A stretch of DNA of 44,517 nt from the sequence record MF153391.1; one strand, 5' to 3'. This document shows, piece after piece, positions 2,431 to 44,517 of this stretch. Origin of the DNA: Escherichia phage ST20. Within the stretch, counting starts at the first letter, position 1. The number at the start of each line of letters is the position of its first letter. Both the position numbers and the translations under genes were made by a program. The notes below the pieces were generated by a model that saw nothing but the letters and a program-made list of their open reading frames with translations, was not told the origin of the DNA and made no database searches.

Positions 2431-2459
2431 AATATAATAGGGTCGATGATAATAGTCAA
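2431..2459 (-). promoter_or_regulatory. Sigma70-like promoter TTGACT-17-TATATT driving the leftward small-gene operon
   Basis: Reverse complement of 2431-2459 reads TTGACT, 17-nt spacer, TATATT. Confidence 0.5.
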
Positions 2460-2480
2460 CTAGTCATTACAGAAAATAGA

Positions 2481-4346: not shown

Positions 4347-4550
4347 TTATTTCTCCTGTTTACCAAGTCGCTTAGGTGAGCAGATAGCGCGTACCTCTGA
4401 ATCGTTGGGCTTGTCACCCTGAAACAGAAAGTGCGCGTTCTCTGCGGCACGTGCCGCTGACTGGCACGCCTCCATCGAATAGAACGTTTCTGTTGCCGCT
4501 AGTTGCATATGGCCCGTGGACAGTACCCAGATAAAGAGGATGCTGGTCAT
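4347..4550 (-). CDS. Hypothetical protein with hydrophobic N-terminus
   Basis: ORF track 4347..4607; ATG at 4550 in ATGA overlap with the upstream stop. Confidence 0.35.
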   Translation of the reverse strand: MTSILFIWVLSTGHMQLAATETFYSMEACQSAARAAENAHFLFQGDKPNDSEVRAICSPKRLGKQEK

Positions 4551-5020
4551 TTCTTTAACCCGCATATTCTGCACATCATTACGGCGCCCCCATTGTAAAA
4601 GCACCATTCGTGGCTACATTTCTGGGTATCTTCCTTACGGCTACCAGACGGCGCAGAGCCATCTGTTACTACATAATAGAAACTGTAGGGCCATCCTTGA
4701 GTATCTTCTTTACGACTACCAGATGGCTCAGGCCCGTGTTCACCTTTACGGATAAGTTTGTACGCCTCCACGTCACCGGTAGCTTCGGCCAACGCCAGAT
4801 GTAGTTCCTTAACTTGCCCTGTCAGGTGTGATATGTGCTCAGATTTCTTAATGTTGTCTTCCTGTAACTCGTCCACCAGCTCCGACATATCACGTAACTG
4901 GTTCTTAAGTGACTGCACCTCATGCGCCAGGTCTTCACACTGTTTCTTGTACGTGTTGTTAGTTACCTGCTGCCGTAGCTGGTCGATCAGATACTCGAAT
5001 ACTTCGTTTTTAGTGTTCAT
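4547..5020 (-). CDS. Hypothetical coiled-coil protein with internal tandem repeat (PSGSRKEDTQ twice)
   Basis: ORF track; repeated peptide and matching DNA repeat around 4614-4725. Confidence 0.5.
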   Translation of the reverse strand: MNTKNEVFEYLIDQLRQQVTNNTYKKQCEDLAHEVQSLKNQLRDMSELVDELQEDNIKKSEHISHLTGQVKELHLALAEATGDVEAYKLIRKGEHGPEPSGSRKEDTQGWPYSFYYVVTDGSAPSGSRKEDTQKCSHEWCFYNGGAVMMCRICGLKK

Positions 5021-5138
5021 ATTCTTCGCTCACTCCGTTATAAACGCCGTTGTAATCCCCGTCGCAAATGAACGGGTAGAGCATATCCTCGTACTCGTCC
5101 TGCAACTCACCCAAAGTTACTTCGCTATAATCTTTCAT
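5010..5138 (-). CDS. Hypothetical 42-aa acidic protein
   Basis: Hand translation MKDYSEVTLGELQDEYEDMLYPFICDGDYNGVYNGVSEEYEH; AGGAGAG upstream; first gene after the promoter at 5170-5198. Confidence 0.3.
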   Translation of the reverse strand: MKDYSEVTLGELQDEYEDMLYPFICDGDYNGVYNGVSEEYEH

Positions 5139-5169
5139 CTTCAATCTCTCCTCTCGTTCGTGTAAATGA

Positions 5170-5198
5170 ATAGTAGTCTATTCTATCTTAGCGTGCAA
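5170..5198 (-). promoter_or_regulatory. Promoter TTGCAC-17-TACTAT with palindrome GAATAG-TAGT-CTATTC
   Basis: Reverse complement reads TTGCAC, 17-nt spacer, TACTAT; inverted repeat at 5168-5183. Confidence 0.5.
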
Positions 5199-5497: not shown

Positions 5498-5539
5498 AAG
5501 TCACTCAGTAAAATCCCAAACTATTGTTACAATATAACA

Positions 5540-6470: not shown

Positions 6471-6503
6471 AACCACACTCCTCTGTCTCGTTTCGATAAG
6501 TGA

Positions 6504-6532
6504 ATAGTATCCTATTATGTTGGGGTGTGCAA
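6504..6532 (-). promoter_or_regulatory. Promoter TTGCAC-17-TACTAT with inverted repeat GAATAG-TATC-CTATTA
   Basis: Reverse complement reads TTGCAC ACCCCAACATAATAGGA TACTAT, near-identical to the promoters at 5170-5198 and 29313-29341. Confidence 0.5.
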
Positions 6533-6626: not shown

Positions 6627-6726
6627 AATAATCGTTACATTTTTACGGTTGCGAATCTACGGCACTTTAAGAAACTTAAGGAAAATTAGTTACTTATGTA
6701 ACTTAGGGGATTTTTACAATAGACTA

Positions 6727-6858
6727 GTGGCCTTCCGGACGCGTCAGCGAAACTACACTCAGGGCTAATGCCCCGCTCCGTTTCCTGCCGTGACACGGTC
6801 GCTTGTTCATACTTCACAAGCTCAGGTGGAGCTTAGCACATTTTTAGTGAAAAGTCAA
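6727..6858 (+). repeat. Structured non-coding element, copy 1 (about 130 bp); possible small RNA ending in a terminator-like hairpin
   Basis: Near-identical to 38987-39120; hairpins GGGC-TAAT-GCCC (6762-6773), CCGTG-A-CACGG (6788-6798), AAGCTC-AGGTG-GAGCTT (6818-6834), then TTTTT at 6841-6845. Confidence 0.6.
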
Positions 6859-6906: not shown

Positions 6907-6935
6907 TTGAAGTACCATTATCTTGGGTACTTCAA
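6907..6935. promoter_or_regulatory. Perfect 10-bp inverted repeat TTGAAGTACC-N9-GGTACTTCAA upstream of the rightward replication genes
   Basis: Direct reading; lies about 20 bp before the SD of the 6954 ORF. Confidence 0.35.
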
Positions 6936-6953: not shown

Positions 6954-7097
6954 ATGAAGATTTGCCAGATGTGTAGGAAAGAAAAAGAAGAAGGTGCATT
7001 CCTTAAACGATACGACAGAAAAGGCACACGTAGTTATTGCCGTGAATGTTTCAATGCGTACCGCAAACAATTAAGAGAGGCTAAGAAGAATGCATAA
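6954..7097 (+). CDS. Small zinc-ribbon protein (47 aa)
   Basis: Hand translation MKICQMCRKEKEEGAFLKRYDRKGTRSYCRECFNAYRKQLREAKKNA; GAGGAG 8 nt upstream; CxxC...CxxC. Confidence 0.4.
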   Translation: MKICQMCRKEKEEGAFLKRYDRKGTRSYCRECFNAYRKQLREAKKNA

Positions 7098-10153: not shown

Positions 10154-10172
10154 AAGGGGCGTTAAGCCCCTT
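10154..10172 (-). terminator. Terminator hairpin for the XRE regulator gene
   Basis: Stem AAGGGGC/GCCCCTT with loop GTTAA, followed on the minus strand by TCTTTTTATT. Confidence 0.5.
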
Positions 10173-10377
10173 CACCAAACGCCAGCCACTTAGCGTCTAC
10201 TTGCAGCACTTCCGCCAGTTTAAACAGCGTCGCCGGGCGGACGTCCTGAGTTACCCCGAGTGCCAGCTGGTTAATCGCGCCCTGGGAAACACCAGCCAGG
10301 ACCGCCAGACGGCGCTGGGAGATGCCGAGTTCTTTGCGGCGTTGTTCTACGCGAATGCCTAGTTCAGATGGTTGCAT
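10162..10377 (-). CDS. XRE-family (Cro/CI-type) helix-turn-helix transcriptional regulator
   Basis: ORF track 71 aa; ISQRRLAVLAGVSQGAINQL HTH-like segment; AAGGAG upstream; transcribed divergently from the rightward promoter at 10442. Confidence 0.7.
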   Translation of the reverse strand: MQPSELGIRVEQRRKELGISQRRLAVLAGVSQGAINQLALGVTQDVRPATLFKLAEVLQVDAKWLAFGEGA

Positions 10378-10403: not shown

Positions 10404-10440
10404 TGTGAATAGTACCATATTAATTATTTTAGAAAAGCCC
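10404..10440 (-). promoter_or_regulatory. Putative promoter of the XRE regulator gene (shares the TACTATTCA element, weak -35)
   Basis: Reverse complement contains TACTATTCACA as in the TTGCAC-type promoters; partial inverted repeat GAATAG-TACC-ATATTA. Confidence 0.3.
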
Positions 10441-10441
10441 A

Positions 10442-10471
10442 TTGACAACATGAATAGTTAGCTATTATAGT
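10442..10471 (+). promoter_or_regulatory. Rightward promoter TTGACA-(17/18)-TATAGT with inverted repeat AATAG-TTAG-CTATT
   Basis: 22-bp core TGAATAGTTAGCTATTATAGTT identical to 13153-13174. Confidence 0.55.
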
Positions 10472-10504
10472 TAGCCCATACCAAACGAGAGGAGAGAGAA
10501 ACAA

Positions 10505-13144: not shown

Positions 13145-13173
13145 TTGACACCTGAATAGTTAGCTATTATAGT
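13145..13173 (+). promoter_or_regulatory. Rightward promoter TTGACA-17-TATAGT with inverted repeat AATAG-TTAG-CTATT
   Basis: Direct reading; same core as 10442-10471. Confidence 0.55.
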
Positions 13174-13228
13174 TCTAATCACTGGCCGGGCAGTTCCCGG
13201 AGTAAACTGAAAACTGAGGAATCGAGAT

Positions 13229-16371: not shown

Positions 16372-16645
16372 GGGCCGCATCCAGAAATACGCAAAAGAGC
16401 GATTCGAGGCCATTGGTGGTCTCGTTCGTAAACTGTCTTATGAGGGGCGTTCCGGCGCTCCTGACCTGCTGGTAATTCTCCCCGGTGGCATCATCTGGTT
16501 CGTCGAGGTGAAGAAAGACGAAAATACGAAGCCAGACCCGCACCAGATACGCGAGCACGAGCGGATGCGTAAACGCGGTGCAAATGTTTTTGTCGTCGGT
16601 TCGTTTAAACAGGTTGACGACCTAATAGCGAACTATTATAGTTAA
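16358..16645 (+). CDS. VRR-NUC domain nuclease (PD-(D/E)XK)
   Basis: ORF track 95 aa; PDLLVILPGG...FVEVK; GAGGGG upstream. Confidence 0.65.
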   Translation: MSTPEGRIQKYAKERFEAIGGLVRKLSYEGRSGAPDLLVILPGGIIWFVEVKKDENTKPDPHQIREHERMRKRGANVFVVGSFKQVDDLIANYYS

Positions 16646-16675: not shown

Positions 16676-16783
16676 ATGAAACACGAATATGACCACAAAC
16701 CGGCACGTGACATCGTACCAGGCGACATGATTTTCAACGTTAAGACCCGTCGTCCTGTTGCCGTTGATACGGTGTTCGTCTAG
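16676..16783 (+). CDS. Hypothetical 35-aa protein ending at an in-frame TAG
   Basis: Hand translation MKHEYDHKPARDIVPGDMIFNVKTRRPVAVDTVFV; AAGGAA upstream; the frame stays open after the TAG to 16867. Confidence 0.25.
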   Translation: MKHEYDHKPARDIVPGDMIFNVKTRRPVAVDTVFV

Positions 16784-29312: not shown

Positions 29313-29341
29313 TTGCACACCCCAATATAATAGGGTACTAT
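29313..29341 (+). promoter_or_regulatory. Rightward promoter TTGCAC-17-TACTAT with inverted repeat TAATAG-GGTA-CTATTC, driving the accessory cassette
   Basis: Direct reading; near-identical to the leftward promoters at 5170-5198 and 6504-6532. Confidence 0.55.
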
Positions 29342-29371
29342 TCACCTACACCAACAATGAAGGAGTTTAAA

Positions 29372-33567: not shown

Positions 33568-33962
33568 TATTTCACCTTGTTGGCTTCTTCGTTAATGAGT
33601 TGCTGGAAGCGAGACACATTAGTCCTGACAACCCCGGCTGGCGCCTGTTGTGACCAACCATACTCCAGCCGTTGTGCATACGGCAGATTATTTGTCAACG
33701 TGAACTCGCGCCAGTCGGCGGCTTTCAGCACGAAACTTGTAGCGTTTCCGATTGCTATGTTTCCTGATTTATCTGTAGCATCCGTAACCCCTGAAGCAGG
33801 ATTACCGCCAGACGCCATCCAGTTCATACGAAACCGACCAGTATCTACCGGACTCGCCTTTATGATAGCGGAAAACAGCTTGATAGACACCTGACGCATC
33901 ACCTTCTCAGGGTTCTTCTTCGCCTTTTCTACGAACTTAGAGACATCAAGCGCGAAACTCAT
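33567..33962 (-). CDS. Tail completion protein (HK97 gp10-like)
   Basis: ORF track 131 aa; SPVDTGRFRMNW segment; position. Confidence 0.45.
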   Translation of the reverse strand: MSFALDVSKFVEKAKKNPEKVMRQVSIKLFSAIIKASPVDTGRFRMNWMASGGNPASGVTDATDKSGNIAIGNATSFVLKAADWREFTLTNNLPYAQRLEYGWSQQAPAGVVRTNVSRFQQLINEEANKVK

Positions 33963-38288: not shown

Positions 38289-38370
38289 AGTCAGTATGTC
38301 CCCTGGACGTTGGAATCCGGGCCACCCGGATTTACATGTCAAGAATAAATTATTCCAACATGCAAGGCAA

Positions 38371-38634: not shown

Positions 38635-38866
38635 GGGTAATCACCTCTGATTTCGTCTTGCCTTCGTTGTCAGCGGCCGCGGCCTTTGATTCATCCTGCT
38701 GCTGCCGTTGTGTTTTCTTCGCTAACTCGGCCTGTGCCTTCTGCTGTTGCTGCGAAACGAGATTCGCCCGGCCTTCGTTCCAGCCGCTGCGATACTGGTA
38801 GATGCCGTGTGTGTAAGCCAGGATGATGAAACATGCTCCTGCTACGACAGTTGCTTTAAGATTCAT
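38480..38866 (-). CDS. i-spanin (Rz-like)
   Basis: ORF track 128 aa; N-terminal transmembrane segment then Gln/Ala/Lys-rich coiled coil; AAGGAGAAAC upstream. Confidence 0.6.
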   Translation of the reverse strand: MNLKATVVAGACFIILAYTHGIYQYRSGWNEGRANLVSQQQQKAQAELAKKTQRQQQDESKAAAADNEGKTKSEVITREVVKYIKTPGRSVCAFDPERMQLKSRAVANANSIPGYDDDAAAVQTGGTK

Positions 38867-38986
38867 GTTTCTCCTTTCTCGATAAGTAAAGCCCCGCCGT
38901 AAAGCGGGGCGCTAGTCCTTATCATTTAAACATAGAAACGGCGTAATCTCAGTAAACCCGTTACTTTTTACACAAGCAATATAGTA

Positions 38987-39120
38987 TGGCCCTTCCGAAC
39001 GCGTCAGCGTAACTACACTCAGGACTTACGTCCCGCTCCGTTACCTGCCCGCGCCGCGGTCGCTTGTTCATACTTCACAAGCTCAGGTGGAGCTTATCAT
39101 ATTTTTAGTGAAAAGTCAAC
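38987..39120 (+). repeat. Structured non-coding element, copy 2 (about 130 bp)
   Basis: Near-identical to 6727-6858; hairpins GGAC-TTAC-GTCC (39022-39033) and CCGCG-C-CGCGG (39049-39059) carry compensatory changes relative to copy 1. Confidence 0.6.
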
Positions 39121-39180
39121 TATTCGAATAGTTTATTCCAACATTTACAATTTAGAGGAATAACTGGAATAATCACAGAC

Positions 39181-44384: not shown

Positions 44385-44517
44385 CTACCTTTTATCCATG
44401 TACTCATCGACTATGTCAATTATGTACCTGTGCTCTACAAGCCACGCCAACATATTTTCTGGCCTGACATCGCCGTTTGGGGCACTGCCGTACAGAATGC
44501 AGTCATTATAGCAATCC
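44385..44517 (-). CDS. C-terminal part of the wrap-around small ORF whose ATG lies at 139
   Basis: Same frame as 1-139 across the 77-bp overlap; ends ...LVEHRYIIDIVDEYMDKR with stop at 44385-44387. Confidence 0.3.
   Translation of the reverse strand, partial: DCYNDCILYGSAPNGDVRPENMLAWLVEHRYIIDIVDEYMDKR
44441..44517. repeat. Terminal 77-bp exact direct repeat (copy 2)
   Basis: Identical to 1-77. Confidence 0.9.

Follow-up and report, generated by a model that had tools for sequence, protein, structure and literature searches.

The 44,517-nucleotide genome sequence of Escherichia phage ST20 (record MF153391.1; "the window" hereafter means this whole stretch) carries a 14-bp inverted repeat, AATAG-N4-CTATT (N, any base), on six promoters, and these six head every transcription unit that is not late, namely two early units running leftward, three replication units running rightward, and one cassette of immunity and nucleotide-kinase genes. 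Its pattern of conservation among related phages makes it highly probable that the dyad is a selected protein-binding site, and a 71-residue Cro-like protein of the XRE family, encoded beside one of the perfect sites, probably binds it and represses the promoters on which it lies.

Across the whole genome the dyad occurs exactly at six positions (5169, 6503, 10453, 13155, 16624 and 29329) where 0.01 matches are expected, and nine sites lie within one mismatch of it (1.1 expected); at exactly two mismatches the count, 15, does not rise above chance (17.5 expected). When all 5+5 palindromes with spacers of 0-8 bp are counted without bias, this dyad ranks first in the genome by over-representation, above the terminator hairpins. 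All six exact copies are intergenic and lie on promoter-like sequence followed by a Shine-Dalgarno sequence and a gene, and the structural gene regions hold none. The extended form is (T/G)AATAG-N4-CTATT(A/C); most sites pair one TGAATAG half with one TAATAG half, except that site G (sites are lettered by promoter, as listed below) is without any TGAATAG half and the second half of site A is GAATAG. An earlier note, made from the letters of this DNA, had described such an inverted repeat on a family of promoters, and the genome-wide motif search both confirms that family and enlarges it by a sixth exact site, on the promoter at 16614-16642, which had been missed. The two longer repeats that it had described are likewise present: TTGCAC-N17-TACTATTCA has three exact matches (5198-5167 and 6532-6501 on the minus strand, 29313-29344 on the plus strand; 0.00 expected), and an identical 22-bp core, TGAATAGTTAGCTATTATAGTT, is shared by the promoters at 10442-10471 and 13145-13173 (at 10451-10472 and 13153-13174).

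Two promoter architectures carry the dyad. In class 1 (promoters A, B and C), which reads TTGCAC-N17-TACTAT, the right half-site overlaps the -10 element and the dyad is centred near -12.5. In class 2 (E, F and G), which reads TTGAC(A/G)-N17/18-TATAGT, the entire dyad lies within the spacer, its last base being the first T of the -10, and is centred near -18.5; these promoters match the sigma-70 consensus at 10-11 of 12 positions (11/12 for E and F), with spacers of 17-18 bp. The promoters, their operator-like sites and the regulator gene (positions in the window; ORF, open reading frame; aa, amino acids) are:

5167..5198 (-): class-1 promoter A, -35 TTGCAC 5198-5193, -10 TACTAT 5175-5170; heads small early leftward ORFs, first ATG at 5138
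5182-5169 (-): putative operator of promoter A, AATAG-ACTA-CTATT, centre near -12.5
6501..6532 (-): class-1 promoter B, -35 TTGCAC 6532-6527, -10 TACTAT 6509-6504, putative operator 6516-6503; heads a 60-aa ORF (ATG 6470) and leftward early genes (gene-anchored alignment)
29313..29344 (+): class-1 promoter C, -35 TTGCAC 29313-29318, -10 TACTAT 29336-29341, putative operator 29329-29342; heads a cassette of superinfection-immunity protein, metallophosphoesterase, polynucleotide kinase and deoxynucleoside monophosphate kinase, embedded in the late (tail) region
10442..10471 (+): class-2 promoter E, TTGACA-N18-TATAGT, putative operator TGAATAG-TTAG-CTATTA at 10453-10466 in the spacer; heads an operon from an 85-aa ORF through a PD-(D/E)XK nuclease (XRE-anchored alignment)
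13145..13173 (+): class-2 promoter F, TTGACA-N17-TATAGT, putative operator 13155-13168; drives the genes for an Enc34-type single-stranded DNA-binding protein (SSB) and DNA polymerase (SSB-anchored alignment)
16614..16642 (+): class-2 promoter G, TTGACG-N17-TATAGT, putative operator AATAG-CGAA-CTATT at 16624-16637; drives a 35-aa ORF (16676), a C5 methylase and a SNF2 helicase (gene-anchored alignment)
10404..10440 (-): promoter D, of the XRE gene, -10 TACTAT 10414-10409 preceded by TGG, no usable -35 (CTTTTC)
10421-10408 (-): imperfect putative operator of promoter D, AATAT-GGTA-CTATT, one mismatch
10162..10377 (-): XRE/Cro-like regulator, 71 aa, monocistronic, with its own Shine-Dalgarno sequence; recognition helix GVSQGAINQLALG
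10173-10153 (-): intrinsic terminator of the XRE gene
2431..2464 (-): promoter H, TTGACT-N17-TATATT (2459-2431), with a one-mismatch dyad ACTAG-TTGA-CTATT (2464-2451) over the -35; drives small ORFs, including a NinH-like one, upstream of the terminase gene
TGAATAGTTAGCTATTCA: candidate operator DNA for the XRE protein

Promoter D had been described as a weaker copy of the TTGCAC family; it does share TACTATTCA, but CTTTTC stands where TTGCAC was proposed and its dyad carries one mismatch. Because the mismatched T of this dyad creates TGG before TACTAT, giving an extended -10 (TGn), we infer that promoter D is of the extended -10 type. Its site and that of promoter E lie 45 bp apart, centre to centre. 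The one-mismatch dyads at 2451-2464 (promoter H) and 39111-39124 straddle a -35 TTGACT, a geometry unlike that of the other sites. The dyad of promoter H is conserved in Kagunavirus and carries its mismatch in the other half-site in Jerseyvirus (AATAG-TTGA-CTAGT); it is possibly a weak operator. A leader common to several of the promoters, AC(N)AAACGAGA(N)GGAG, follows them and ends in the Shine-Dalgarno sequence (5141-5160, 6480-6497, 10480-10496 and 2401-2420).

Relatives of the phage make it possible to separate what is conserved in these sites from what is not. Positions 1-77 are duplicated exactly at 44441-44517, and the window is therefore a complete genome, of ~44,440 bp, assembled as a circle; megablast places it in the genus Kagunavirus (of the virulent subfamily Guernseyvirinae), with ~91% identity over two thirds of a 10-kb segment to Escherichia phages SZH-1, UTEC10 and others and with hundreds of weaker matches to Salmonella jerseyviruses. 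Ortholog promoters were located via flanking genes and not via the motif, so as to avoid ascertainment bias, anchored on the start codon of XRE, on the SSB gene and on the genes that follow promoters G (35 aa) and B (60 aa), in 51 IMG/VR contigs and two reference genomes; column entropy was then computed on the Kagunavirus and Jerseyvirus loci. Mean entropy is 0.16 bit in the half-site columns that lie outside the -10; in the central N4 it is 0.97, in other spacer columns 0.74, in the 10 nt immediately downstream 0.56, in the -35 0.36 and in the -10 0.29 (Mann-Whitney p = 9e-8 for the entropy difference, the columns being not fully independent). At promoter E, N4 reads TTCG, TTAG, TTCA, CTCG, TTTG or CTAG, and no Kagunavirus locus departs from AATAG and CTATT; the 4-5 bp that separate the -35 from the dyad differ among relatives in both sequence and length. 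In Salmonella phage SE2, where the ortholog of site C lies at 33752, N4 differs at each ortholog promoter (AACA, TACT, AGTA, TGTA, TGGC) and the half-sites have at most one mismatch. The subclade L104-L107, with an XRE protein 77-78% identical and the same recognition helix, retains every site with a new N4, and also retains the imperfect half of the promoter D site, the N4 of which has changed from GGTA to GCTA.

Since the half-sites are near-invariant while N4, the spacer and the -35 and -10 elements vary more, the dyad behaves as an operator and not as a feature of the promoter. Sigma-70 has no need of half-sites located in a promoter spacer, and half-sites that lie there and are better conserved than the hexamers are the signature of a sequence-specific dimeric protein. 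The likeness among the sites could instead reflect common descent of duplicated promoter cassettes together with the needs of sigma-70 and the spacer, with no dedicated regulator. Such descent would fit the leader ACnAAACGAGAGGAG and Shine-Dalgarno sequence common to the promoters, the overlap of the class-1 right half-site with the -10, and the behaviour of cassette A (promoter plus leader), which is conserved in relatives but stands before different first genes, so that the promoter-leader unit behaves as a mosaic boundary and suggests mobile promoter modules. It sits poorly with class-2 half-sites that lie outside both hexamers yet are better conserved than them, and with most variable columns that are precisely the 4 bp between the half-sites and the 4-5 bp beside them; it also leaves unexplained a dyad symmetry found in two registers relative to the -10, and the turnover of N4 across genera around invariant half-sites argues for selection. 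We consider descent without a regulator improbable, and the operator reading well supported by the comparisons among relatives. The palindrome of class 2 was also considered as a promoter on the opposite strand, where TATAAT is present, and rejected, there being no -35 at the correct distance.

These repeats are already in print under a different name. The description of phage fBC-Eco01 lists seven repeated 20-mers found with the program PHIRE, including TGAATAGTAGTCTATTCTAT and TGAATAGTACCATATTAATT, as promoters PP1-PP7 of a phage RNA polymerase, with the consensus tgAATAGTa-ccTATTat-T (PMC9825357), and that of phage Golestan reports seven promoters, again from PHIRE (PMC7203180). The window and the annotated relatives contain no RNA polymerase gene; the published label is therefore wrong for these phages, and gene content in effect refutes it; in addition, the sites are dyad-symmetric and lie within sigma-70-type -35/-10 pairs, and PHIRE reports repeated words and says nothing about a polymerase. 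That the 20-mers are promoters of a phage-encoded polymerase is thus hardly credible. An operator reading of the repeats was not found in the literature searched; the mechanism itself would be a familiar one, of Cro type.

The candidate binder is the XRE protein, which the earlier note had correctly placed divergent from the promoter at 10442. It belongs to Pfam family HTH_3 (PF01381; 48.1 bits against a cut-off of 23, E = 1.2e-12, residues 11-65), and its best sequence match in the PDB is Cro of phage 434, also of 71 aa (E = 5e-7, ~40% identity, residues 6-68), followed by the 434 repressor DNA-binding domain and P22 c2. An AlphaFold2 model (predicted local distance difference test, pLDDT, 79) has five helices (residues 5-17, 21-28, 32-39, 48-57 and 62-66), and Foldseek of this model against the PDB returns 2cro and 1pra at the top (template modelling score 0.73-0.79). 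The protein is single-domain, without a C-terminal dimerisation or peptidase domain, and no second XRE or CI protein was found among the ~50 ORFs scanned; from its Cro size, the absence of a CI partner and the absence of a C-terminal domain it follows that it is not an immunity repressor. Gln32 and Gln37 are the equivalents, in our mapping from the alignment, of Gln28 and Gln33 of 434 repressor; the rest of the recognition helix differs, in keeping with a half-site unlike that of 434.

The earlier note had thought such a regulator unexpected in a genome with no recognisable integrase. An integrase or recombinase is indeed lacking (window ORFs with a homologue in annotated SE2 or SP-031 map to no integrase gene), every large ORF corresponds to a replication, packaging, head, tail or lysis gene in these annotated relatives, and the literature on relatives describes strictly virulent, integrase-free phages. 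However, homologues of the XRE protein are found in 567 phage records, which amount to essentially the whole of the virulent Guernseyvirinae and in which its usual annotation is transcriptional repressor or regulator. Being universal in a virulent subfamily, its presence without an integrase is no anomaly. The nearest homologue outside the subfamily, at 45% identity, is Cro of the lambdoid Klebsiella phage RCIP0098.

Several lines of evidence point to this protein as the factor that recognises the dyad. Judged by homology, it belongs to a lineage that binds 14-bp dyads with a variable centre, which is the format found here. A perfect dyad adjoins its gene and an imperfect one lies on the gene's own promoter, which together form the classic layout of a putatively autoregulated gene. 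Pfam scans of ~50 window ORFs found no other clear helix-turn-helix (HTH) or other DNA-binding regulator above threshold. A weaker hint comes from the base outside AATAG, which is always T in Jerseyvirus and is G in 36% of Kagunavirus half-sites, a genus-specific difference that parallels differences in the recognition helix. RNA sequencing (RNA-seq) of the Kagunavirus K1B4, which gives gene-level kinetics, adds that of four genes with an early peak the sole annotated one encodes an HTH-domain protein (K1B4_008, a candidate orthologue of the XRE protein; PMC12645636). Taken together, these observations make it somewhat more probable than its alternatives combined that the XRE protein binds the dyad and represses. 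The proposal in the earlier note, that the sites are operators for one repressor, therefore stands in part: the sites behave as the operators of a single factor, with half-sites conserved across two genera, and the XRE protein is the probable and not the established occupant.

Other observations weigh against this assignment. An XRE homologue (~40% identity) persists in Cornellvirus-like phages (SP-031 and L049-L051), which are without the palindrome; their ortholog promoters have degenerate dyads with 2-4 mismatches, for example ATTAG-TTTA-GTATT, and no replacement palindrome was found in SP-031 or L049-L052 by de novo counts of 4+4 and 5+5 dyads and a promoter scan covering every intergenic region. 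The phyletic pattern therefore does not prove a link between protein and site. Nor do the recognition helices separate the groups, since that of Cornellvirus (VTQSAISH) is about as near to that of Jerseyvirus (VSQSLITH) as is that of Kagunavirus (VSQGAINQ); greater differences are seen in helix 1 of the Cornellvirus homologue and in the loop that follows its helix 3. The true binder could be one of the many small early ORFs in which no domain is recognisable. The class-1 promoters, although their position upstream of a Shine-Dalgarno sequence and gene is conserved, score just 7/12 against the sigma-70 consensus at N17. Finally, the transcript of the K1B4 HTH gene peaks before those of the replication genes, an order that is not in itself evidence of repression.

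Searches for independent pairs of XRE protein and operator outside the subfamily yielded no usable pair: a contig scan returned 8 loci, none of them useful, and a search of 5.8 billion proteins returned Guernseyvirinae-like clusters only. Among the IMG/VR matches listed for TGAATAG-N4-CTATTAT, those in unrelated contigs were single chance matches, and stretches with multiple matches occurred only in Kagunavirus.

The Cornellvirus pattern is one reason to consider that the dyad is a true operator for another protein, either a small early phage protein or a host regulator common to E. coli and Salmonella, in which case the XRE protein would regulate its own neighbourhood alone, or something else. 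Domain-less ORFs shared with SE2 and missing from SP-031 (for example 4547-5020, 963-1211 and 16676-16783) would be the natural phage candidates. To our knowledge the dyad matches no host regulator consensus. Against another binder stand the XRE protein's position as the only one of ~50 ORFs with a DNA-binding domain above threshold, the 14-bp 5+4+5 geometry, which is that of 434- and P22-type HTH dimers, and the imperfect site on the XRE promoter with a perfect site 45 bp away. We judge a different binder unlikely, though it is the most probable of the alternatives. Four specific candidates were tried and rejected: the Xis-like gp15 of SE2 and SE2 gp49 are both absent from the window; the NinH-like ORF at 136-396 is sub-threshold in Pfam and is well conserved in SP-031, which is without the motif; and the 47-aa ORF at 6954-7097 has no Pfam family match.

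If the XRE protein is the binder, a simple scheme can be proposed, by analogy with 434 Cro on its own 14-bp operators. A dimer of the 71-aa protein would bind AATAG-N4-CTATT, and the bound dimer would cover the -10 in class 1, or the region from -25 to -12 (the spacer, abutting the -10) in class 2, and so would exclude the host sigma-70 RNA polymerase from the six otherwise strong promoters. As the protein accumulates, it would damp or shut off the early, replication and immunity-cassette operons, and at higher occupancy would also damp promoter D through the imperfect site, amounting to a weaker negative autoregulation; the whole scheme would run without a CI partner, an integrase or lysogeny. 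The sites, their promoter-like positions, the purifying selection on the half-sites and the homology to Cro are observed; the identity of the binder and the steps from the bound dimer onward, including dimer binding, repression and timing, we infer.

The protein might instead act as an activator or dual regulator that is itself expressed early and then turns on the replication (middle) promoters. The early peak of the K1B4 HTH gene, with most replication genes peaking later, would suit this order of events if that gene is the XRE orthologue (PMC12645636), and the half-site words also form a 16-bp palindrome centred at about -41.5 from a promoter at 39119, described below. Two features make activation unlikely: the class-2 promoters are near-consensus, and at 10-11/12 with 17-18 bp spacers should need none, and the site position is occlusive, a dimer at -25 to -12 or over the -10 blocking RNA polymerase; the half-sites at 39133-39118, moreover, stand in opposite relative orientation, and the palindrome they form is absent from SE2. 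Our estimate for an activating role is accordingly low. A broader version would make the orphan Cro a single timer, which shuts the six early and middle operons and also helps to fire the late promoter at 39119 through the inverted half-site words AACTATTC.GAATAGTT (39133-39118, centre ~-41.5), that promoter then transcribing a put-like structured RNA followed by the lysis and head genes downstream. In this reading, which is very unlikely, a single 71-aa protein would end the early programme and begin the late one.

The proposed system resembles known ones in its parts and departs from each in its arrangement. Like the XRE protein, 434 Cro (PDB 2CRO, 3CRO) has 71 aa and a single five-helix HTH_3 domain, and the two align over their full length; the 434 operators, like the dyad, are 14 bp long with conserved outer bases and a variable centre, and overlap promoter elements. 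Since 434 Cro represses early promoters in lytic growth, the same might be expected of the XRE protein. The recognition helices (SQGAINQ against KQQSIQL) and half-sites (AATAG against ACAA) differ, and compared with the immunity region of 434 and other lambdoid phages there is here no CI partner, no tandem OR1-OR3 and no PRM/PR switch, and the operators stand singly, scattered through the genome on six or seven promoters. The XRE gene is monocistronic and stands in the "cI position", divergent from the replication operon, yet encodes a DNA-binding domain alone. Cro of RCIP0098 is similarly small and its gene adjoins 14-bp operators; unlike the phage studied here, RCIP0098 is of temperate type, with CI-cro-cII and Q, and has 434-type ACAA..TTGT operators clustered between cI and cro.

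P22 c2 (PDB 2R1J, 3JXB) is related to the XRE protein in fold and sequence, and its operators have a 7+4+7 layout with a central 4 bp that are not contacted and AG/CT beside the centre, resembling TGAATAG-N4-CTATTCA; it differs in having a C-terminal oligomerisation and cleavage domain, in keeping lysogeny, and in the sequence of its half-site. Dispersal of a repeated site over many units of a genome under one small repressor is familiar from C1 of phage P1 and from the "stoperators" of gp71 of mycobacteriophage L5. Those are temperate phages with asymmetric sites, which in L5 also act within transcribed regions, whereas the sites described here are symmetric, lie on promoters only and belong to a virulent phage. 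The controller (C) proteins of restriction-modification systems, such as C.AhdI and C.BclI, are also good fold matches, being small XRE-fold dimers with palindromic boxes upstream of their own gene, but they serve a single operon by concentration-dependent activation followed by repression, in another context and with another regulon.

Among siphophages, Guernseyvirinae (Jerseyvirus and Kagunavirus) rank with those put forward most often for biocontrol of Salmonella and E. coli, and lifestyle and safety screens have time and again flagged their small "transcriptional repressor" gene, or else ignored it. If confirmed, an orphan Cro that governs a defined set of six or seven promoters would give a reason why a strictly virulent phage keeps such a gene, offer a testable model of early versus late timing without a phage polymerase or sigma factor, and correct the published annotations of phage RNA polymerase promoters. 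A further use could be as an orthogonal repressor/promoter set, built from the strong sigma-70 promoters that carry a compact 14-bp operator and from the 71-aa protein.

Some further observations concern the early and replication regions. In many relatives an extra exact AATAG-N4-CTATT lies just upstream of the terminator hairpin TACGCTGCTACACAGCAGCGTA, off any obvious promoter (for example L004 5998, L008 14595 and L106 14413); its counterpart in the window, at 5512-5525, has decayed to AATAG-TTTG-GGATT. Just downstream of promoter F, the SSB leader CACTGGCCGGGCAGTTCCCGGAGT (13180-13203), which contains a hairpin CCGGG-N5-CCCGG, is nearly invariant in Kagunavirus, Jerseyvirus and even Cornellvirus-like loci; in the SSB/polymerase messenger RNA it may serve as a translational operator or mark a processing site. 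The 47-aa ORF at 6954-7097 (+) opens the helicase-primase operon and has two CxxC pairs (MKICQMCRKEKEE...YCRECFNAY...); relatives carry an HTH_17/Xis-like gene in its place, and a 10-bp inverted repeat, TTGAAGTACC-N9-GGTACTTCAA, lies just upstream of it (6907-6935).

The remaining observations concern the late region. A direct repeat of ~145 bp is present in two copies that are 84-93% identical (6717-6858 and 38977-39119, sense strand minus), each consisting of a promoter TTGACT-N17-TAAGCT and ~105 nt of non-coding sequence, followed by an intrinsic terminator (6626-6605 and 38910-38891) and then by genes: in one copy promoter B and the early and lysis genes, in the other the Rz spanin and head genes. 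Aligned, 10 variants from relatives yield a consensus structure for the ~105-nt element, with 4 compensatory base pairs. Rfam returned nothing at the gathering score anywhere in the window; with E relaxed to 10, the region around 38850-39150 gave noise alone. The putL and putR elements of phage HK022 are cis-acting antitermination RNAs, which a two-copy, promoter-proximal structured RNA before terminators recalls; a small regulatory RNA is the alternative. This structured RNA may be the more novel feature of the genome.

Upstream of the second copy, the perfect 16-bp palindrome AACTATTCGAATAGTT (39118-39133, minus strand; centre ~-41.5 from the promoter at 39119) contains the operator half-site words in the opposite relative order, and is present at most Kagunavirus loci and some Jerseyvirus loci. 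A second dyad, GGAATA-N3-TATTC, abuts weak -35 elements upstream of the Rz/spanin and scaffold genes (39126-39138 and 38343-38355), with further GGAATA/TATTCC copies 20-30 bp upstream. It recurs in SE2 (L002; 23055 and 23811) and SP-031 (L003; 25438, 26069 and 26596), and is kept in all three genera, including Cornellvirus, which is without the early operator; it resembles a binding site for a late-gene activator distinct from the XRE protein.

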